The notes: generated by a model not told the origin, from the letters alone. A stretch of DNA of 64,000 bases from a virus (IMGVR_UViG_2654587674_000003), one strand, 5' to 3'. Counted from the stretch's first letter, positions 23,367-33,521 are shown. Numbers and translations: made by a program.

Positions 23367-23756
23367 ATGGGCTTCCCTTCTCCTGCGGCGGATTATGTTG
23401 AAAGCCGAATTTCTCTTGATCAGCAGATAATTAGACATCCTTCAGCGACCTACTTCATGCGGGCAGCTGATAGCCATCACCGTGAGGGAATATTGCAGGG
23501 TGCTTTGCTGGTGGTTGATTCCTCGCTTACTCCGGTTGATGGTTCTCTGCTTGTGTGCGCTATGGAGGGTGAATATCGCATAAAGAGATACAGGAAGTAT
23601 CCGCGCCAGCACCTGGAGGACTTAAGCACCGGGAAGAAAGAGGCGTTACCAGTAGATGACGATGGATACACGGGCAGTAATGCTGTTTTTGGTGTGATCA
23701 CTCATGTCATCAATGATGCCCGAAGTGGGGAATTTGATGATTGTCCGGTTATTTAA
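23367..23756 (+). CDS. humD: UmuD-like protein (HumD)
   Basis: 129 aa; GFPSPAADYVE motif and S24-peptidase-like core; LexA box upstream. Confidence 0.7.
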   Translation: MGFPSPAADYVESRISLDQQIIRHPSATYFMRAADSHHREGILQGALLVVDSSLTPVDGSLLVCAMEGEYRIKRYRKYPRQHLEDLSTGKKEALPVDDDGYTGSNAVFGVITHVINDARSGEFDDCPVI

Positions 23757-23828
23757 GCTGCAAAGTGCTGGTGCTTTATGCCTGTGAAGTTTATAATTGT
23801 GTACACATAACGAGTACACGAGGTGTTT

Positions 23829-24050
23829 ATGCAATCCATTAACTTCCGTACCGCGCGTGGCAACCTTTCTGAAGTGCTCAACAATGTTGAAGCCGGGGAA
23901 GAGGTTGAAATCACCCGCAGAGGCCGTGAGCCAGCAGTAATTGTCAGCAAGGCTACTTTTGAAGCCTACAAAAAAGCGGCGCTGGATGCCGAATTTGCAT
24001 CCCTGTTTGACACCCTGGACTCCACCAACAAGGAACTGGTTAACCGATAA
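23829..24050 (+). CDS. phd: Phd antitoxin
   Basis: [49 protein letters not shown] matches P1 Phd as I recall it. Confidence 0.85.
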
Positions 24051-24430
24051 TGAGGCATATATCACCGGAAGAACTTATTGCGCTTCATGATGCGAATATA
24101 AGCCGCTACGGCGGCCTGCCGGGAATGTCAGATCCGGGTAGGGCAGAGGCCATTATCGGGAGAGTTCAGGCCAGAGTTGCCTACGAAGAGATCACCGACC
24201 TTTTCGAAGTCTCCGCCACCTACCTGGTGGCTACGGCGAGAGGGCATATATTCAATGATGCCAATAAGCGTACCGCGCTAAACAGTGCGCTGCTATTTCT
24301 ACGCCGTAACGGTATACAGGTATATGATTCTCCCGTGCTGGTGGAACTTGCGGTGGGGGCCGCAACTGGTGAAATCCCCGTATCTTCAGTAGCGGAAAAA
24401 CTACGTGAATTATTTGGTTCCAATATTTGA
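24050..24430 (+). CDS. doc: Doc toxin (Fic-fold kinase)
   Basis: [40 protein letters not shown]...[15 protein letters not shown] matches P1 Doc as I recall it. Confidence 0.9.
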
Positions 24431-24433
24431 AAA

Positions 24434-24459
24434 GAAGCCCGCTCAACCAGGCGGGCTTC
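24434..24459. terminator. bidirectional terminator hairpin
   Basis: gaagcccgc-tcaaccag-gcgggcttc, 9-bp stem between convergent genes. Confidence 0.5.
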
Positions 24460-24465
24460 CTACTA

Positions 24466-25560
24466 TCACTCAATGATTTTTTCTGCTGTCAGCCAGCTAA
24501 TTTCTTGCCTGTCTTTCGGCGGTTTTAGCATGTGGGCGTATTCAGCGACATTCTCCCACGAAATTGTTTTTGCCCACTCAACGATAGCATTGTGATCTGC
24601 AGTGAAGAGTGGAATGGTGTGCGATTTCAACCATTCTAATGTCGTGACGCCATGTTTTTTGGCGTGGTGCTGCGCATGATGCCGGGCTATCACTCGTAAT
24701 GGTATTGTCCATTCACTACCATCAGGCATCGAAAAGCGCATTGTCTTCGGCATATCTGATTCAAGAACAGCCTCCCTAATACCAGGGAACTCACCAAGAA
24801 TCATACGACGATAGTCATCACTATTTCGCCCGCCATACCTTTCGGCAAAATGATCAAGATATTCTTGGGTAATAAATGGTGAATCCTCCGCACTCAGCTT
24901 AATGGCTTTATATACACCACTCGGATTATCTTCAGCTAAAGCACGTCCATGATGTGAATCATAAAAAAAGCCTATTTCCTCTGGTGACGGAATTGAAGTG
25001 AGCAATATGCGTGAATCACCACTAGTCATGCTTGCCCACACAATGCTGTATGCCTGATCGCTGATATGTGCGGAATCCACAATAATGAATAAAAGATGGT
25101 CGGCGTAGTGACCTGCAATGCTATCTTCATAGTTAAGGCGGAAGTTACAAAAGCACATTCCCCAAAATTCATTGAACATCAGACCGCTATCACCGACCTT
25201 AAAATACTCAATGATAAAAGGTTGTTTTTTCAGCAATGCCTCCCAACATTGCCACACATATGCAACAATTCCTCTTTTGCAAACATTTGATTTTGGATAA
25301 ACAATTACTGTCCGGGAATCAGGATACATAATCGTATAAAGGGTACTAATAACAGCAAGCACTTGCGGTCGTCCGATCCCATACGGAGTGGTGACAGTAG
25401 CTTTTGCATTATTGGGCTGTATAGCTTCAACAATTTGTTGTTGCTGGTGGCTTAAATCAATATCAAACAATTCTTTTGCTGCCAGTACCCAATTGTCTTT
25501 ATATTTCTCCACCAGCGACAGCCAGCGCGGATCTTTATAAATATTGCTCTTAGTCGCCAT
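24466..25560 (-). CDS. terminase large-subunit ATPase-domain paralog with degenerate Walker motifs
   Basis: start MATKSNIYKDPRWL parallels the PacB N-terminus; FFYDSHHGRA..DNPSGVYKAIKLSAEDSPF aligns with PacB FYDSHHSRA..DNPKGIWTAIVLNSEESPF; Walker A replaced by PYGIGRPQ; no nuclease-domain length. Confidence 0.5.
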   Translation of the reverse strand: MATKSNIYKDPRWLSLVEKYKDNWVLAAKELFDIDLSHQQQQIVEAIQPNNAKATVTTPYGIGRPQVLAVISTLYTIMYPDSRTVIVYPKSNVCKRGIVAYVWQCWEALLKKQPFIIEYFKVGDSGLMFNEFWGMCFCNFRLNYEDSIAGHYADHLLFIIVDSAHISDQAYSIVWASMTSGDSRILLTSIPSPEEIGFFYDSHHGRALAEDNPSGVYKAIKLSAEDSPFITQEYLDHFAERYGGRNSDDYRRMILGEFPGIREAVLESDMPKTMRFSMPDGSEWTIPLRVIARHHAQHHAKKHGVTTLEWLKSHTIPLFTADHNAIVEWAKTISWENVAEYAHMLKPPKDRQEISWLTAEKIIE

Positions 25561-26317
25561 CTGCCACTTCCTTAACTTCTTCTTTGGCCTGTTCTGCAAT
25601 CGCCGCACGGCATTTCGCCCTGGCTGTAGCGATTGCTTCAGCTCGCACATCGTCTGGAATCGTTGACGTGATATACATATCCAGTTCTTCGGCACGGAAT
25701 ACTGTTTGGTCCAGATATTCGCGTAGCATCCAGGTAAATTCGAAATCACACGCGATAATCTCTGCGCTACCTTCTGCACCATTTGGGAAATGAATAAATG
25801 CCTGTTTAGCCAAACCGATAACACGACATGCGGTTGCCAAAACAGCGACAACCAGGTTTACATTTTCACACGCTACGGGCTGGTTAACGCCGGAGATTAC
25901 TCCATTTAACTGTCGGTTATATGGAAGGTAGTTTGAGATGCGTTCTACGCGCCATGTGCCAGTCAGGCTGCCATTTTTAAATATAATTGGTGTAACGGAT
26001 AGCCCAAGCTCGCGTATAAGTCGTTGCGCTATAGCAGGATCATTAAACAGGTCTAATGCTACACATTCGAAAGACTGCGCAAGGGCAAACAGTTCTTCCA
26101 GAGAGTAGTCTTTGCCCCTGGCGGTGATGTAACGACGAACGCCGCTGTCTGCATCACTCCATATAGCTACGCCATGCTCTTCATTCAGCTCTTCATTAAA
26201 GCCGAGATACGTCATGATAGTGCGTTCAATCGTGTCAAACGGCAGTGACATGTCGGCGTTAACAGCCACCAGCAGGCCATTACGCAAGCGGTATTGAATT
26301 GTTTTAGTGCTTTCCAT
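25550..26317 (-). CDS. hypothetical protein
   Basis: 255-aa ORF, overlapping stop/start with the terminase paralog. Confidence 0.4.
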   Translation of the reverse strand: MESTKTIQYRLRNGLLVAVNADMSLPFDTIERTIMTYLGFNEELNEEHGVAIWSDADSGVRRYITARGKDYSLEELFALAQSFECVALDLFNDPAIAQRLIRELGLSVTPIIFKNGSLTGTWRVERISNYLPYNRQLNGVISGVNQPVACENVNLVVAVLATACRVIGLAKQAFIHFPNGAEGSAEIIACDFEFTWMLREYLDQTVFRAEELDMYITSTIPDDVRAEAIATARAKCRAAIAEQAKEEVKEVADGD

Positions 26318-26323
26318 GTCAAA

Positions 26324-26764
26324 TCACTCCACAACAAACCAGTCACAGGCCAGCAGGTCGCCAACTGAAGGCACCCACGGAACAACTACACCTTGTGCAT
26401 TTTTTAAGGCGAAATAAGCACCATACGGAACGAGGTCGCCGGGGAAATATCCCTTAATGGCTTCCATTCGTGCCGGGTACTGTCCTTCAGGAACCAGCCA
26501 GCAGAATTGGTTTTCGCCGTTCCACCCGCGTCGAGCAACTTTCTTGCCTTCCTTCAGCCACATCAGCGCGTCTGAAAAGTCGGCTGCTTCAAGGTCGATT
26601 TCTTCTTGCTGGGTGGTGATGCCACCAGCAGAAATAGTTACGCTCCCGGTAAGATTAATCATCACGCCGTTGTCATCCGTAATGATGACCGTGGTTCCAT
26701 TTTTTTTGTGAGCTTTGTATTTGGGACGGAACTTAAAAAGCTCTTTCGTTGCCATGTTATTCAT
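26324..26764 (-). CDS. DUF2829-like protein (candidate anti-defence sponge family)
   Basis: 146 aa; FSDALMWLKEGKKVARRGWNGENQF motif characteristic of DUF2829 as I recall. Confidence 0.4.
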   Translation of the reverse strand: MNNMATKELFKFRPKYKAHKKNGTTVIITDDNGVMINLTGSVTISAGGITTQQEEIDLEAADFSDALMWLKEGKKVARRGWNGENQFCWLVPEGQYPARMEAIKGYFPGDLVPYGAYFALKNAQGVVVPWVPSVGDLLACDWFVVE

Positions 26765-26778
26765 AGTCTTTTCTCTGC

Positions 26779-27273
26779 TTATAACTTTTCGTACTGAAGC
26801 GGTGAACGCTTAATTTCAAAGTGGCCTTCCGATGTGCTACCAAAGCCACCAGCACCACGCTCCGTTTCGTTGAGTTCCTCAACCTCGACTAGTGAGACTT
26901 GTTCAACACGCTCAAAAATTCCTTGCATGACAGCCATTCCAGGCTTGAGACAAACGCCTTCCCCGCCTGGATCAGTAATCAGTTTTGCCATGATTTCGCC
27001 GCGATAATCGGAGTCGATAATTCCTACGCAGTTAGCCAGGCGAGTATGTTTTTTGCAGCCCAATCCTGATCGCGGATAGAGTTTCAGACACCAGCCGGGC
27101 GGGATCTCCATAGCCAGTCCGGTATACACCCACCAGCTTGAGGAAATTGCACCATTGCTATCGACGCATGGTTTTATTTCAACAGCCTCAAAATCCATCG
27201 CCGCCGATCCGGAGGTGGCATAAGCTGGAAGTTTTGCTGCCGGATGTAGGCGTTTCACTTTTACGTAAATCAT
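26779..27273 (-). CDS. dut: dUTP diphosphatase
   Basis: YATSGSAAMD, PRSGLGCK, GIIDSDYRGEI, GGFGSTS motifs. Confidence 0.7.
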   Translation of the reverse strand: MIYVKVKRLHPAAKLPAYATSGSAAMDFEAVEIKPCVDSNGAISSSWWVYTGLAMEIPPGWCLKLYPRSGLGCKKHTRLANCVGIIDSDYRGEIMAKLITDPGGEGVCLKPGMAVMQGIFERVEQVSLVEVEELNETERGAGGFGSTSEGHFEIKRSPLQYEKL

Positions 27274-27746
27274 TGTTTTTTAGCTCTCTGCGTGAAGGTG
27301 TAAACCCGACGTTTGATATGTGGAACGGTAGGAACAGGAAGACAGGAACTTTCAATAACTCCTTGCTCCTCCAGCGATCGCACCGCCCGCAAGAACTGCG
27401 ACGTGTCGCCGCCAAACTGGCGGGCATAGGTGCTGCCGTTATGAAGTATTTGAGCTATTACCCGAGCTTTTGTCTGGCTGTCACGATATGCGAATAGCCG
27501 CACGGCCTCTTCTGGCGCAATCGCTAACTGATAGCCTTTCCCGGCACGGTGTCGAATGAATCCATGCGCCAGTAGGTTTTTGAGTTCGTTACGAGTGCGA
27601 ACAGATCCGTAACCCAGGAAGTGTGGATTGATAACGACTGGCTTAAACCATTCCGTAGGTGCTTTAGCTAATAGAGCTAACAGCTTCCCGGATAATTCTG
27701 GATAGGAAGACGGGTAACAATTCAGAGATGGGTAATAAGTTTTCAC
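27270..27746 (-). CDS. hypothetical protein
   Basis: 158-aa ORF, co-oriented with recombinase operon. Confidence 0.4.
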   Translation of the reverse strand: MKTYYPSLNCYPSSYPELSGKLLALLAKAPTEWFKPVVINPHFLGYGSVRTRNELKNLLAHGFIRHRAGKGYQLAIAPEEAVRLFAYRDSQTKARVIAQILHNGSTYARQFGGDTSQFLRAVRSLEEQGVIESSCLPVPTVPHIKRRVYTFTQRAKKQ

Positions 27747-28087
27747 CGACGCCCCCTTGCAGGATATCGACCGGCATTAGTATCCGGTGCAATAAAGCCG
27801 GTAGTGGGGCGAGTGAAAGCGAGATTAATCTTCTCGACCATAGTGCGATAATTTTCCTGATAGTGGGCCAGGAGTTTTTCGGCGGCAATGATGGTTACTT
27901 TCCGGACGTAGCTTTCTGCTTCCTCCAGATTTCGCCAGTTTTTTTCGAGGGTAAACACAGGGACGGCCTCAAGCCCGGTCATGATGCCGAACACAACGAC
28001 AGCATGACTGTTCTTAACACCAGCGGCGAAGGTTACGGTGTAACCATCCACCTTGAAGCGTCTTGATTCCGTGATTTGACTCTGCAA
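27743..28087 (-). CDS. hypothetical protein
   Basis: 114-aa ORF directly downstream of the recombinase gene. Confidence 0.4.
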   Translation of the reverse strand: MQSQITESRRFKVDGYTVTFAAGVKNSHAVVVFGIMTGLEAVPVFTLEKNWRNLEEAESYVRKVTIIAAEKLLAHYQENYRTMVEKINLAFTRPTTGFIAPDTNAGRYPARGRR

Positions 28088-28160: not shown

Positions 28161-29189
28161 TTACGAATCCATCAGGCGGCTATTAGCCCCCACAGACACG
28201 CCGCCACGGCGAAGATACCGCATAAGTGTTTCCGGTTTCTTCCAGGTTCCTTCCTGCATGATCTCCACCATAGACACCTGCTTTTCAGCCATATCAATAG
28301 CGGCCCCGACGCGTGCACTATGCCCAGTCCACGTCCGGTATCTTCCTTTGTTTGGCGTAGCATCTCTTTTATTCAGCAACACCCAGGCGTCGCTGAATAT
28401 TTTCTCCATTGCAGGTGCAGTAAGGGGCGTTGTCGTAATCCTGGCCTTATTGCTACGGTGTATCGGCGGGAACAGCACCGCGTCAGGATGTTCACGAAGC
28501 CCGGAAACATCCAGCCAGTCATTCAGCACAGCAGTAGTGCGACGGGAAAGCACCTTATCAAGCCCGGCGGCGGTCGTTATTGTCTTCGTGTGTGAAATAT
28601 GTAGCGTGACAGTGTCACCTGTTTGGTCCAGATCTCCTACACGAATACGCGAGATTTCCGACATACGCATCAGCGTATTGTATGCAACAAAGAGAAAAGC
28701 CCGGTTGCGCTGGTCCACCAGCCGTTCTGACCTGGACAGCAGGACGTCGAGCAGTTTCAGGTCGTCCCACCGCAACGGTATAGCCTGGCCTGTTCGCTCG
28801 CCTTTTTCCGTTGCCGCTTCACGCCGGATGCGCCGCATGGCCAGAGACACACTTTTATCGTCCGACAGCGGCGGGAGGCCACATTGCGAAAGCAGCATGT
28901 TAAGCATGGCATAGTGCTTATCAATGGTGGTCGAAGCCAGATCAGCATCATGCAGCTGAAGAAAATACTCGCGGGCCATCTCTGGTGAGATCGGGAACCA
29001 GGCGAGCTGGCGAGCGTGACACCATCTCGCCCAGGAGTGAAACACTAACCGGAGATCGCGCAAAGTATTCGGCGCGTAAGCCCCCTGGTCATTCATGAAC
29101 CGCATAAAGTTTTCTGCGGCCTCCTGGTACTCTTTGCCAATGTTGCGCAGAAAACCACCGGAGCTGCCAGAGATAATTAATTTACTCAT
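28161..29189 (-). CDS. dre: Cre-family tyrosine recombinase (Dre-like)
   Basis: 342 aa; VSLAMRRIRRE, NRAFLFVAYNTLMRMSEISRIRV, WTGHSARVGAAIDMA...EIMQEGTWK align with Cre catalytic core; rox-like site 150 bp upstream. Confidence 0.85.
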   Translation of the reverse strand: MSKLIISGSSGGFLRNIGKEYQEAAENFMRFMNDQGAYAPNTLRDLRLVFHSWARWCHARQLAWFPISPEMAREYFLQLHDADLASTTIDKHYAMLNMLLSQCGLPPLSDDKSVSLAMRRIRREAATEKGERTGQAIPLRWDDLKLLDVLLSRSERLVDQRNRAFLFVAYNTLMRMSEISRIRVGDLDQTGDTVTLHISHTKTITTAAGLDKVLSRRTTAVLNDWLDVSGLREHPDAVLFPPIHRSNKARITTTPLTAPAMEKIFSDAWVLLNKRDATPNKGRYRTWTGHSARVGAAIDMAEKQVSMVEIMQEGTWKKPETLMRYLRRGGVSVGANSRLMDS

Positions 29190-29341
29190 GAAACTATTTA
29201 ACCTCTATATACAGATGACGCTACGCGAAAAATATAAAAATGACAGGGTAGCTATAAGTTAATTTTCAAGATTCAAGCCTTTGATCCGAGGCACGTATTT
29301 TCAGTGATGTCAACACTGATCATCTACCCATGATTATAGCC

Positions 29342-29373
29342 TAACTTTAAATAATGCCAATTATTTAAAGTTA
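29342..29373. other. rox-like lox-type recombination site
   Basis: taactttaaataat-gcca-attatttaaagtta: perfect 14-bp inverted repeats with 4-bp spacer; arms share ATAACTT...ATA with loxP. Confidence 0.85.
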
Positions 29374-29583: not shown

Positions 29584-30621
29584 ATGAGTAAGAAGTCGAT
29601 CGAGAAAGAGTACAAACGGTTCCTGCAAACCGCTGAACGGTGGAAAGAGCTGGTGGTCGCAAACTCTGTTTTCCATGATACCAGTTATGCTGGCGAGGAA
29701 TTCCGCCATGTTGCATTAACGCATGACCAAAACATATTAGAAGAAGCTGAAAAATGTCTTGCTGAATGGAAAGCCTTCGTTGACATGTGCCGCGATGCCG
29801 ACGGCAAAGCGTCGAACATTGTTGAGTCTGTATATTCTCCGATCCCATTCATCATTGAGGACACCAATCAAAGCACGCATGTCGTTGTGCAAAGCGCTAC
29901 AACAACACGTACATTTACACGTGAACAATTGCTAAAAAAATACGACAAAATCATAAAGAAAAGCCTTAAAAATAGGGTTTTTTCTCAAATCGTAGGTGAT
30001 CTTGAAGAAGAACAGCGCTTCTTTGAAGCTGAGCCTGAAGGCGAGATCTACCGGGCGCGTAAAGAGGCATATACAGATGTTGTGCTGACAACAAACATCG
30101 AAGGCAGCAATGCCCTTTCTCGCTTTAGAGTTGGCGCACATGGTGCATTGGTTTTCGCAAGACTACCGAAGACAACGATCCCCGTTGTCAATAATGTTGG
30201 TGAACGCCGGAGCATTACAATTTATTCTGGCGTCGAATCGGTACCTTGCAGCCTTCTCGGCGATTTTAACTTATATCGTGTTCGTGACCTGGAAAAACAC
30301 CAGCCAAGCTATGTTGCGAAGTCGTACATCTTAAGGAACATCGATATTCGCAATGAAAGCCTTAAGCAGAAATCCGCTAAGATGCTGGAGGATGCCGATC
30401 CGGCTATTCGCCATATCATTGAGCGTAAGATACGTACATCACGTGAAGCAATGGCAAGGCTGGATAAAATGGATCTGGAATTGTTAGACGTAATGATGGC
30501 CTCTGGAGACGACCTGACCGGCATTAAACTGAATGAAGCTCGTAAAAAATACGGCAAAGCAATCGAAGAACGTTACGGATACACATTCCCCCAAACGCAG
30601 TACGCCGCGAAGCTCTGGTAA
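29584..30621 (+). CDS. hypothetical protein at the immC-equivalent position (possible immunity repressor)
   Basis: 345 aa; between the rox site and the 3' end of pacB, convergent with pacB, where P1 carries c1; no sequence motif recognised. Confidence 0.3.
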   Translation: MSKKSIEKEYKRFLQTAERWKELVVANSVFHDTSYAGEEFRHVALTHDQNILEEAEKCLAEWKAFVDMCRDADGKASNIVESVYSPIPFIIEDTNQSTHVVVQSATTTRTFTREQLLKKYDKIIKKSLKNRVFSQIVGDLEEEQRFFEAEPEGEIYRARKEAYTDVVLTTNIEGSNALSRFRVGAHGALVFARLPKTTIPVVNNVGERRSITIYSGVESVPCSLLGDFNLYRVRDLEKHQPSYVAKSYILRNIDIRNESLKQKSAKMLEDADPAIRHIIERKIRTSREAMARLDKMDLELLDVMMASGDDLTGIKLNEARKKYGKAIEERYGYTFPQTQYAAKLW

Positions 30622-30654: not shown

Positions 30655-32157
30655 ATCCAGATCCGGCATTTCGATATCCGCCAGAACCTGATCTCGGAAA
30701 GTTGCCATTTCGGCACCAATATCTTCATTAGCAGGCACATAGTCCACCAGCATAGTGAAGCAGTAGGTATCCCATCGGTCAGGCGATTTGATGTTTAGCT
30801 TTTGCCGCATGTGCTCTTTGCGCATCATCGCCATTTTCCCTTCTTCATTCAGTAAAAAGGGGATTTTTGACGCTTGCTCTGCCGTTTTAGGGTCACTGTC
30901 TATCCGCATACGCCCTGACTTTATGGCATCACGCGCCATAATGTTTGCGTAGGCACGCTGATTAACAAATCGCTCCCTGTCTTTGTTCGCAAACATGGGT
31001 TTTCCCCACCGAATACGTACCGGGTTCGCACCACGACGCACCAACTGCGCACACGTATCAGAACCAAAACCATCAGCATCAACCGCGATTGTTATATTCG
31101 GGTATTTTTCCGGCGTACATTCGTTATATATGAAGTCAGCAAAGGCCAATGGGTCCATAGTGCCAGGCATCTCCATTACCTTAAAGTTAACAACGCGCCG
31201 CTTATCCCTGTGACCTGATACCTTGCAGATGTTGAGGACCGACTTATCTCGCCCATTACCAACGTCAGCCGTTGCCACCCATCCCCAGTTTTTCTCCAAC
31301 AACACCTTGCGGCGAGCAGAGCGATCGCATTCATCACGACCAAGCAAATAGCCGTTAATTTCTCGTGGGAACTGACCAAGCACCTTGACCATGTACTCAA
31401 TAGAATCGCGCCCACCATATTCCAGAAGCTTCTCCTTGATGAATTGTGGTGTGACGAACGGTGATTCTTCCGAGTTAAGAACAATTGCTGTCCAGATCCC
31501 TTTCGGGTTGTCTGGGGTTTTTGCTCGAGAATGGTGCGAATCGTAGAAATAACCACTTGGCCTTGTTGGCTGGGATAGCATCAACATCCGGTTATCTTCT
31601 TCAGTAAGAGCACCGGTCATTACGCCGATCGCCTTATCAGATATACCAGATGCTTCATCCAGAATTAGAAGCAAATGTGCCGCGTGTTCCCCCGCCAGCG
31701 CTTCTTCGTTGCCGAGTCGATAACCTTTGCAGAGAACTTCCCAAATCCCCTTACGGGAGCGCTCATAAAACATGGTGTCAGAGAGGACAAAATAGGTCTG
31801 CAACCACCCATGACGCTTAACTGCATTCGCCCAATACTGTTTAACGTATTTGAATACGCCTGTTTTTACCTGGCCTATCTTGTTAGCAACAATGATGACA
31901 CGGGCATCGGGGAACAGGATCATAAAAATCAACAGCAACATCGCGGTAAGGGACGACTTCCCCGTTCCGTGTCCGGACGTGACGGTCGTCCTACTCCCCG
32001 TTTCCTGCACTGACTGAATGATCTGCTGCTGCTGGTGGGAGGGGAACATCCCAAAAATATCGACTACAGCCTGGGTAAAGTTGTAGCGGTATTTGATTAC
32101 CATATCGCGCCAGCGTGGATCGCTGGTGACGCATTTAATCTTGCGCCCGCCAGCCAT
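30649..32157 (-). CDS. pacB: terminase large subunit (PacB-like)
   Basis: 502 aa; Walker A TSGHGTGKSS, Walker B LLLILDEASG, C-terminal nuclease-length domain. Confidence 0.75.
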   Translation of the reverse strand: MAGGRKIKCVTSDPRWRDMVIKYRYNFTQAVVDIFGMFPSHQQQQIIQSVQETGSRTTVTSGHGTGKSSLTAMLLLIFMILFPDARVIIVANKIGQVKTGVFKYVKQYWANAVKRHGWLQTYFVLSDTMFYERSRKGIWEVLCKGYRLGNEEALAGEHAAHLLLILDEASGISDKAIGVMTGALTEEDNRMLMLSQPTRPSGYFYDSHHSRAKTPDNPKGIWTAIVLNSEESPFVTPQFIKEKLLEYGGRDSIEYMVKVLGQFPREINGYLLGRDECDRSARRKVLLEKNWGWVATADVGNGRDKSVLNICKVSGHRDKRRVVNFKVMEMPGTMDPLAFADFIYNECTPEKYPNITIAVDADGFGSDTCAQLVRRGANPVRIRWGKPMFANKDRERFVNQRAYANIMARDAIKSGRMRIDSDPKTAEQASKIPFLLNEEGKMAMMRKEHMRQKLNIKSPDRWDTYCFTMLVDYVPANEDIGAEMATFRDQVLADIEMPDLDI

Positions 32158-33521
32158 TAATCATCCTCCGGCGGTTCTATCGCGATATCATCATCTCCGG
32201 CGTCATACCCTGCATCAGATGCATCATAATCACCGTAAATTTCAGCCGTTGCCGAAGGGTCAATATCCAGCTCTTCGTCGTTGGCCTCGAATTCTCCAGC
32301 TTTACGCTCGCCATTGCGGTCGTAATCTCCGCACCCCAATTCTTCAACAATGGTTGCCACATCCGCCCGGCGCTCTGCCAGCCATTGCGGATGGTTAGCC
32401 TGAAGCGTTGCAAACTCCCTTGCCTCTTTGTCCAGCTGTTCATCATCAACATCATTGACGTCAGAAACAGGTGGTTCGAGAAGAGTGATAGCTTTCGCCG
32501 CGCGCGCCGCGAGGATAGCCGGGACGCTGACACCCTGGCGCTCGATGTATTCAGCAACACCGATATCATCCAGTTCCTCGCGCTCACGCATACGTATAGC
32601 GGCGGCGATAACTCTGGCTGCGCGTGCGTCAGCGCCAATGCGATATTCAATCTCTTTGCCACGCTGTTCGGCCTGTAGGCGTGCTAATTCGAGTTTTTCT
32701 CTGGCCTCAGCCTCTTTGAATGCTTGCTGGCGAGCGCTCTGACGAAGCTTTTCATCCCCCTGTCGCAGCTTTTGTTCGGACTGATATATAGCTGCCAACC
32801 TACTGATAAAATCATTCATGTAGTAGGCCGCGTCACTGATTAGACCGAGAAGGCGCTGCCCAGGGTGCATTCCTTCTGGCTCTTTATCGCCCAAGGCGTC
32901 TATTTCCGCCTGTAGACGTTCGGCCTCCTGATCAACAATGCTTTGATACTGAAGTGCGCGCTCTTGCGCCATTTGAATTGCTAACCGCAGGTGTTCTTCT
33001 GCGCCGTTCTTCATCATATCGCGAGCCACATTCGTAGTTGGCAATGTGGCACGCTGCACAGCACCGTCAGGGATCATTGCAGAAGATCCCTCAATTTTTG
33101 GGGCGTTTTTATCTTCTTCGGGGATCATTTTCGCCATTTTTTCGCGCAATGATCTCCTGACAGATTCTTTTATCTCATTGTTATTATTTGAATTATTTTC
33201 ATGATCCGAAGTTTTCTTTCTCGGCATACTTCGGAAAGAACCTGCGCCCTGCGAATTGTCAATTTCTGTAAATTTTGTTTTTTCTGCACCCTCTTCCAGC
33301 TTTTTTGTTGCTCTTCCCGCCCGTTTTTTTTCAGGTGATTTGGTGCTTTTTTTTGTTGTCTTTACCTGCGACCGCACCTCATTTTTTTTCATATTGAGAT
33401 GCTTTCTGGCTGTATTGAAGCTAAGGCCATGCTCCTCACAGTATTCCTTTACAGTGATCCCTTTTTCTTCACGCAACGCTATAAAGCGGGCGCGGTGCTC
33501 CTCCCAATTAACCAGACTCAT
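32157..33521 (-). CDS. pacA: terminase small subunit (PacA-like)
   Basis: 454 aa; N-terminal HTH (ITVKEYCEEHGLSFNTARKH), acidic C-terminus; stop overlaps pacB start. Confidence 0.55.
   Translation of the reverse strand: MSLVNWEEHRARFIALREEKGITVKEYCEEHGLSFNTARKHLNMKKNEVRSQVKTTKKSTKSPEKKRAGRATKKLEEGAEKTKFTEIDNSQGAGSFRSMPRKKTSDHENNSNNNNEIKESVRRSLREKMAKMIPEEDKNAPKIEGSSAMIPDGAVQRATLPTTNVARDMMKNGAEEHLRLAIQMAQERALQYQSIVDQEAERLQAEIDALGDKEPEGMHPGQRLLGLISDAAYYMNDFISRLAAIYQSEQKLRQGDEKLRQSARQQAFKEAEAREKLELARLQAEQRGKEIEYRIGADARAARVIAAAIRMREREELDDIGVAEYIERQGVSVPAILAARAAKAITLLEPPVSDVNDVDDEQLDKEAREFATLQANHPQWLAERRADVATIVEELGCGDYDRNGERKAGEFEANDEELDIDPSATAEIYGDYDASDAGYDAGDDDIAIEPPEDD

Follow-up and report, generated by a model that had tools for sequence, protein, structure and literature searches.

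A conserved terminase-derived pseudoenzyme with a novel fusion partner is optional cargo of P1/D6-like phage-plasmids

The terminase large subunit (TerL) is the motor needed by every tailed phage and one that often triggers bacterial pattern-recognition immunity. Avs1-3 and Upx sense this subunit, Avs2 and Upx through its ATPase domain, and EcAvs2 reads the ATP bound there (PMC13601566). Phage T4 encodes vs.8, an uncharacterized, ATPase-only relative of the T4 terminase that keeps Walker A and B and activates EcAvs2 (PMC13601566). Here we describe a gene at positions 24466-25560 of a viral DNA of 64,000 nucleotides (nt; IMGVR_UViG_2654587674_000003, hereafter the window). The window belongs to a D6-type phage-plasmid of Escherichia, an identity assigned because its recombinase is Dre and is accompanied by a rox site. 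The 364-amino acid (aa) product, which we call dead TerL, is a conserved and, judged by its motifs, catalytically dead copy of exactly the domain that the immune sensors recognize, and it is carried as swappable cargo. As read from its sequence, it is a two-domain protein, in which a PacB-type ATPase fold predicted to be unable to bind or hydrolyze ATP canonically, with no nuclease, is joined to a phage domain of ~100 aa. It represents a new family of terminase-derived pseudoenzymes with a novel fusion partner, and we found no terminase-derived pseudoenzyme or decoy described in the searchable literature. The absence of the gene from the laboratory phages P1 and D6 would explain why dead TerL has so far gone unstudied.

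The functional PacB of the window served as the reference for the dead protein. In a BLASTP comparison, residues 7-259 of dead TerL align with PacB residues 10-264, with 96 of 258 positions identical (37%) and an E value of 7e-57, a homology that on this alignment is far beyond chance. The original prediction, made from the DNA alone, held that dead TerL aligns along its length with the PacB ATPase domain and simply lacks the length of the nuclease. The similarity is no short coincidental segment, yet it covers only the first ~260 of the 364 residues. The RNase H-like nuclease domain is indeed missing, as the PacB alignment ends at residue ~260, but the last ~100 residues form an unrelated, well-defined domain. 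The motif replacements that had been proposed, PYGIGRPQ for GHGTGKSS in Walker A and IIVDSAH for ILDEASG in Walker B, are reproduced exactly, so that neither motif is intact on careful alignment. The aligned Walker A segments read TTPYGIGRPQ in dead TerL and TSGHGTGKSS in PacB, and the Walker B segments read HLLFIIVDSAHISD in dead TerL and HLLLILDEASGISD in PacB. A Val and an Asp of dead TerL stand opposite PacB Asp167 and Glu168, which are invariant in live relatives, and the SQPTR motif is gone.

Profile searches place the protein in the same family. Dead TerL matches PHROG 5902 (3e-164) and PHROG 2, 'terminase large subunit' (5e-9). It has no Pfam match at E<=0.01, an NCBIfam scan gave nothing useful, and no family in PADLOC-DB 2.0 matches dead TerL or the upstream gene product IsaA at E<=0.1. 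Searches of PDB sequences with dead TerL and with the family profile found no terminase structure. RefSeq has this 364-aa protein annotated in related plasmids. A longer open reading frame (ORF) of 461 aa from a TTG at 25851 (24466-25851; 438 aa in P0002) runs through isaA in another frame and was rejected as an over-extension artefact. The 438-aa nr entry of this over-extended ORF carries the name 'Terminase large subunit'.

We searched 1.84 billion representative proteins exhaustively with HMMER, which returned hundreds of matches of TerL length, and sorted the best 150 by their residues in the Walker columns of PacB. Of these, 119, mostly proteins of 400-600 aa, the size of true large terminases, retain the P-loop Lys together with the Walker B Asp-Glu pair. 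Another 14 lack the Walker residues, and all of them are 177-444 aa long, mostly ~250-270 aa, corresponding to the ATPase domain alone. In a column-by-column comparison of 11 dead members with 21 live relatives, the P-loop lysine is present in every live relative, and by the classifier in all 119 live-class matches, and is found nowhere in the dead clade. The columns lost or variable in dead members are S61, G62, T65, K67 and S68 (Walker A), D167, E168 and S170 (Walker B and the catalytic carboxylate), H158, and Q196, T198 and R199 (SQPTR); each is conserved in 86% or more of the live relatives, and most are invariant there. Across the dead clade the lysine position is occupied by R, Q, H, E, M, C, T or I, with no conserved substitute, and the Walker B Asp is never kept, its position being V, T, A, M, P, L or I. 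These patterns uphold the earlier suggestion of a catalytically dead relative of the terminase ATPase, since both residues are absent throughout the clade. The elements kept in dead and live proteins alike are non-catalytic: the Q motif, the P-loop glycines, LAG, GYFYDSHH, ExSP and YGG..Y.

In a neighbor-joining (NJ) tree, 13 dead proteins, with the exception of P0043, fall into one clade separate from the live PacB-like proteins. Dead TerL has the features of this clade, namely an ATPase-only core of ~250-270 aa without the Walker A Lys or the Walker B Asp that stands apart from live PacB. The dead alleles tested are 33-38% identical to D6-type and to P1-type PacB alike; the two PacB types are 55-60% identical to each other. 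The separate clade and the similar distance to both PacB types indicate that dead TerL descends from an old line of its own and did not arise by recent duplication of the resident gene, contrary to the idea of a paralog copied from PacB. When tested, the dead alleles showed no co-adaptation to the type of PacB resident in the same element. Truncated motif-dead members come so far exclusively from P1/D6-like elements; context searches for the more distant members P0009 and P0013 yielded no loci.

Residues ~263-364 of dead TerL have no PacB counterpart and instead match stand-alone proteins of ~100 aa. A profile search puts this family at no fewer than 900 small phage proteins (at least 900), and the C-terminal region is recovered with an hmmsearch E value of ~1e-30 and by the C-terminal region of PHROG 17928 at 1e-14. 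It follows the family pattern of ~95 aa with invariant P22, A27, A31, F54, W64, W70 and W91 (MPDGS.W.VP ... TLPLF ... DWA.NNMNW). The predicted model is a small alpha/beta domain for which we found no relative by fold, and none of the 120 family members listed has a Pfam domain. A remnant of the nuclease was considered and ruled out, as PacB does not align here and the segment belongs to a different small-protein family. Stand-alone genes of the family lie among accessory early genes by int in lambdoid prophages and also in other phage contigs, and are not near terminase genes in the loci inspected (L003-L008 and L022-L040). In one environmental contig, two such genes lie in tandem (L030, 4416-4703 and 5173-5469). 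In P0025 the ATPase-like domain and the C-terminal domain are fused in the opposite order, which argues that the two work together; a metagenome scan with this reverse-order fusion recovered stand-alone C-terminal-domain genes only. Not every member of the dead clade has the domain: it is missing from P0007, P0009, P0012, P0013 and P0015, and P0014 has a different tail.

Dead TerL is an optional cargo gene of P1/D6-like phage-plasmids that is under purifying selection. Intact ORFs occur in ~164 PLSDB plasmids from Escherichia, Salmonella, Klebsiella and Shigella; 34 are of the window type, 10 belong to a second D6-type group and ~119 are P1-type copies at ~50% identity. Among 612 Escherichia plasmids with a PacB-like gene, ~148, roughly a quarter, carry dead TerL, which is absent from the other ~three quarters and from P1, P7 and D6. 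Every informative pairwise comparison gave a ratio of nonsynonymous to synonymous substitution rates (dN/dS) of 0.12-0.35 for both domains, so dead TerL is not a fossil. In Escherichia albertii plasmid pEA36_1 (L019, 3989-6222), an IS911 insertion truncates the gene within the C-terminal domain.

We compared the alleles of the window and of plasmid pCUVET20-PYO4.3. The two elements are nearly identical at the protein level in PacA (99.1%), PacB (99.4%), C1 (99.7%), Dre (98.8%), Dut (97.0%) and IsaA (97.6%). In dead TerL, the C-terminal domain is 95-100% identical, versus 30-52% per 40-aa window (about 45%) for the ATPase-like domain. Nucleotide identity falls from 97-100% to 43-73% at ~25604 and recovers to 93-100% at ~24806, and the synonymous divergence (dS) is 1.41 within this segment versus 0.10 in the C-terminal domain. 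This difference, together with bounds at the end of isaA and at the domain junction, identifies the ATPase-like domain as an old allele swapped by recombination. The N-terminal domain of dead TerL varies independently of the resident terminase.

Table 1. Features of the window in and around the dead-TerL gene
Feature	Position	Strand	Evidence or remark
humD, phd, doc	23367-24430	+	
Intrinsic-terminator-like hairpin (GAAGCCCGC...GCGGGCTTC then TTTTC), 6 nt past the dead-TerL stop	24429..24459	-	
Gene for the 364-aa dead terminase-ATPase-like protein (dead TerL)	24466..25560	-	ORF with Shine-Dalgarno sequence and ATG
C-terminal ~100-aa domain of unknown function, from a small phage protein family	24466..24774	-	
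N-terminal TerL/PacB ATPase-like domain, degenerate, residues 1 to ~262	24775..25560	-	BLASTP, family alignment, live-versus-dead column comparison
Mosaic allele segment: ATPase-like domain and last ~45 nt of isaA	24807..25604	-	43-73% nt identity to pCUVET20-PYO4.3; flanks 93-100%
Degenerate Walker B LLFIIVDSAH (residues 156-165); PacB LLLILDEASG	25066..25095	-	
Degenerate Walker A TPYGIGRPQ (residues 58-66); PacB SGHGTGKSS	25363..25389	-	
IsaA homolog, 255 aa, translationally coupled upstream gene	25550..26317	-	48% identical to P1 IsaA, E 3e-89; PHROG 2326
Tad2-like / DUF2829 gene	26324..26764	-	PF11195 at 5.9e-23
dUTPase (dut)	26779..27273	-	PF00692 at 1.7e-14
Two small genes of unknown function, homologs of D6 orf116 and orf117	27270..28087	-	
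Dre tyrosine recombinase, first gene of the operon	28161..29189	-	Pfam Phage_integrase; D6 dre annotation at 96-97% nt identity
Sigma-70-like promoter TTGGCA-16-TATAAT (11/12), overlapping rox; candidate for the seven-gene operon	29333..29360	-	Consensus match only
rox site (TAACTTTAAATAAT-TGGC-ATTATTTAAAGTTA)	29342..29373	-	Read in the sequence; same place annotated rox in D6
C1-type repressor	29584-30621	+	PF27008 in relatives
Resident PacB, functional, 502 aa	30649..32157	-	Walker A, Walker B and nuclease domain intact; 55% identical to P1 PacB
Resident PacA (pacase small / recognition subunit)	32157..33521	-	'DNA pacase A subunit' in a 99.1%-identical plasmid copy

The dead-TerL gene lies in the dre operon, ~5 kb from pacAB and not adjoining pacA (Table 1). 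The region is common in Escherichia coli, Salmonella and Shigella, where plasmids are 98-99.8% identical across 24466-25560 and the gene is annotated 'hypothetical protein'. From dre to dead TerL, seven co-directional genes have ends that overlap or nearly abut. The recombinase-operon setting had been predicted correctly, but the direct neighbor is isaA, and the DUF2829 and dUTPase genes named as adjacent are two and three genes upstream. The start of dead TerL overlaps the isaA stop by 11 nt, with a Shine-Dalgarno AAGGA 8 nt 5' of the ATG (25560). The promoter inside rox is the only strong sigma-70 match in the region, with no internal promoter predicted, and the hairpin after dead TerL is the only convincing terminator of the operon. 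The -35 hexamer TTGGCA of this best promoter falls within rox, and Dre binding could therefore modulate transcription of the whole operon. The P1 C1-operator consensus and the P1 late-promoter pattern each have 0 matches within the window, so timing in the D6-type element is inferred from the sigma-70 consensus match alone. The P1-type copy lies downstream of ssb and would be driven by the ssb promoter, which in P1 carries a C1 operator, making the copy an early gene.

Dead TerL directly follows isaA, with an overlap of 8-14 nt, in all six elements inspected. The pair is found at two different variable loci, both with predicted non-late promoters. Dead TerL occupies the end of the dre operon in the D6-type position (the window, L001 and L018) and lies between ssb and hxr in the P1-type position (L002, L019 and L020), which is the published variable region isaA-IS1-isaB (PMC6906374, PMC9603915). 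In laboratory P1 (L017, 20751-24852), IS1 and the unrelated isaB are found at the site of dead TerL in wild P1-type plasmids; in D6 (L016), whose orf113 is annotated 'similar to P1 gene isaA', nothing follows the isaA homolog. P1 IsaB was considered as a remnant of dead TerL and ruled out. In pEA36_1, ssb is followed by a DUF2829/Tad2-like gene, isaA and dead TerL, the order in which the same trio follows dut in the window. Dead TerL is often part of such a Tad2-like/IsaA/dead-TerL cassette. An Enterobacter relative has a DNA methyltransferase and a Tad2-like gene in the same operon. In P1, isaA is dispensable, and the dar anti-restriction operon is adjacent (PMC10695390). The IsaA model has a pLDDT (predicted local distance difference test score) of 73, and its fold matches, nuclease-like or double-stranded RNA-binding-domain-like, are weak; IsaA is not related to PacA, a relationship that we also considered. 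The Tad2-like gene is a second mosaic spot of the operon, with flanks 97-100% identical. Its N terminus varies by an indel, the product being 146 aa in the window (26324-26764) and 220 aa in L018 (2539-3201), with 82% identity over the shared part.

Our tentative preference, held at less than even confidence, is that dead TerL is a binding-only mimic of the terminase ATPase domain whose target is terminase-recognizing host immunity. Whatever its partners, dead TerL most likely acts by binding them and does not itself package DNA. Its synthesis, early or constitutive, would precede or run separately from that of the real PacB, and it would act by binding only, as a likeness of the PacB ATPase domain. 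The mimic would occupy proteins that normally engage this domain: the dead ATPase domain would be the bait, and the small domain fused to it would block them or serve as an adaptor. Having neither ATP site nor nuclease, the mimic may avoid setting off the sensors of those sites. We lean toward counter-defense because of the Tad2-like neighbor, the methyltransferase in a related operon, the adjacent dar operon of P1 and the non-late transcription. A decoy role, which the original prediction had offered, is possible. In a more specific version, unlikely in this full form, a copy of the PacB ATPase domain that is made early and is blind to ATP would engage host sensors or other proteins that recognize the terminase fold, and the fused domain would prevent their activation, with N-terminal alleles matched to different sensors. 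If this were true, dead TerL would be the first terminase-derived immune-evasion protein, and the stand-alone ~100-aa family, with its at least 900 members in diverse phages, would be a widespread, unrecognized anti-defense module.

A number of observations weigh against a counter-defense role. Terminase recognition by SeAvs3 and EcAvs2 depends on active sites (PMC13601566), and because dead TerL lacks the sites that these sensors read, a simple competitive decoy for Avs3 or Avs2 is unlikely. The binding partner is hypothetical, and the anti-defense argument comes from the gene neighborhood, in which the Tad2-like gene is a putative assignment from a Pfam match. Pfam and PADLOC yield nothing for dead TerL, and a text search of the EVADES preprint, which covers 268 known anti-defense proteins, found no terminase-mimic counter-defense protein. 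The divergence of the N-terminal alleles is old, with dS saturated, and a dN/dS of ~0.3 reflects recombination and not positive selection. IsaA occurs without dead TerL in D6, P1 and elements of Klebsiella, Raoultella and Enterobacter, and in L014 (5330-6789) a 263-aa dead member starts in the stop region of a gene for a Ref-like HNH endonuclease; linkage to isaA is therefore frequent, and the cassette is not obligate. L014 is an 86-kb P1-like viral contig from IMG/VR, in which the partner of the dead member is the Ref-like HNH gene in place of isaA.

The other conflict reading is that dead TerL interferes with packaging by a rival: the dead ATPase domain would bind the PacA-type subunit of another P1-like phage or satellite, co-resident or superinfecting, or would enter its terminase ring, as a poison subunit that blocks pac cleavage or translocation, with alleles aimed at different rivals. 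Dead subunits of oligomeric ATPases are classic dominant negatives, and the segments best conserved between dead and live proteins (GYFYDSHH, AEDSP, YGGR..YR and the N-terminal ~55 residues) are non-catalytic. Exchange of the alleles leaves the resident PacA and PacB unchanged, and no allele is tuned to the resident enzyme, all being at about equal distance from D6-type and P1-type PacB. Loss of the ATP site would also hide a constitutive mimic from Avs-type sensors, as we infer from PMC13601566. On the other hand, the majority P1-type copy is in a C1-repressed early operon and would not be present in a lysogen to keep out an incoming phage. There is also no sign that dead TerL spares the resident terminase, and the identity of every allele to all known PacB proteins, only 33-38%, points to no specific target. 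Taken by itself this reading is rather doubtful, yet it is nearly as likely as counter-defense, and the two are inseparable in silico. A defense system encoded by the prophage itself, in which the dead terminase domain would detect the packaging proteins of an invader, as sensor or integrated bait, and IsaA would be the effector, would suit the translational coupling of the two genes in a variable hotspot and the allelic diversity of the sensor-like domain. We consider it improbable, given the lack of PADLOC matches, the weak fold matches and modest model of IsaA (pLDDT 73), the frequent occurrence of IsaA alone and, again, the C1-repressed operon of the P1-type copy.

Regulation of the element's own packaging was the function first proposed for this gene. 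As a brake, a dead PacB would sequester PacA early, so that no pac cut is made before enough concatemers are present or in the plasmid state. The homology to PacB with its non-catalytic surfaces kept and transcription from non-late promoters fit this idea, and transcription from the early Plpa promoter, which C1 controls, can also extend to P1 pacA and pacB, so that in principle their timing poses a problem. However, P1, D6 and ~three quarters of the related Escherichia plasmids package normally without the gene, and N-terminal alleles at ~45% identity are found alongside PacA and PacB at 99% identity, with no preferential similarity to the resident PacB type. This patchy distribution and the uncoupling of the alleles from PacA and PacB make a core, housekeeping regulator of packaging unlikely, and we give the brake little credence. 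Still less probable, and largely refuted, is that dead TerL is what is left of a second terminase gene, decaying and without function. The loss of all catalytic motifs and of the nuclease domain would fit, as would an IS911-truncated copy and a copy without the C-terminal domain (P0007), but the dN/dS values of 0.12-0.35, the intact ORFs in ~164 plasmids of four genera, the Shine-Dalgarno sequence with translational coupling and the conservation of non-catalytic motifs across members only 23-40% identical all speak against decay. Least probable of all is an active ATPase with a non-canonical nucleotide site, for example with Arg64 in place of the P-loop Lys; the P-loop glycines G61 and G63 remain, as does the upstream Q motif (Q39/Q40), but the Lys and Walker B Asp positions vary with no conserved replacement.

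Whether it blunts terminase sensing, poisons a rival motor or sets the timing of packaging in its own element, dead TerL would be a new use of a pseudoenzyme in phage conflicts. It would also offer a first route to the function of two large families, that of IsaA and that of the ~100-aa C-terminal domain.

Small proteins of satellites that interfere with packaging, Ppi of Staphylococcus aureus pathogenicity islands (SaPI) and Rpp of phage-inducible chromosomal islands (PICI), bind the terminase small subunit and are not derived from TerL. They resemble dead TerL as accessory mobile-element proteins that bind a terminase subunit without catalysis, which is the mode of action assumed in the packaging-interference alternative. 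With PacB, the large (ATPase-nuclease) subunit of the P1/D6 pacase and a member of the TerL family, dead TerL has the N-terminal ~260 residues, the fold-defining non-catalytic motifs and the Q motif in common; it differs in lacking the Walker A Lys/Ser, the Walker B Asp-Glu, SQPTR and the nuclease, in having an unrelated C-terminal domain, and in being optional and not located by pacA. In P1, the isaA-IS1-isaB region contains the homolog of the gene upstream of dead TerL, and P1-type dead TerL lies within this variable region; the laboratory phage differs in having IS1 and an unrelated isaB in its place. Like other viral pseudoenzymes (PMC7605207), dead TerL is a catalytically dead copy of an enzyme that is kept under selection and presumably acts by binding or competition. 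Its nearest precedent is T4 vs.8, which is likewise an accessory, phage-encoded, stand-alone terminase ATPase domain without a nuclease; compared by the published features of vs.8 (PMC13601566), dead TerL differs in having lost the Walker motifs.

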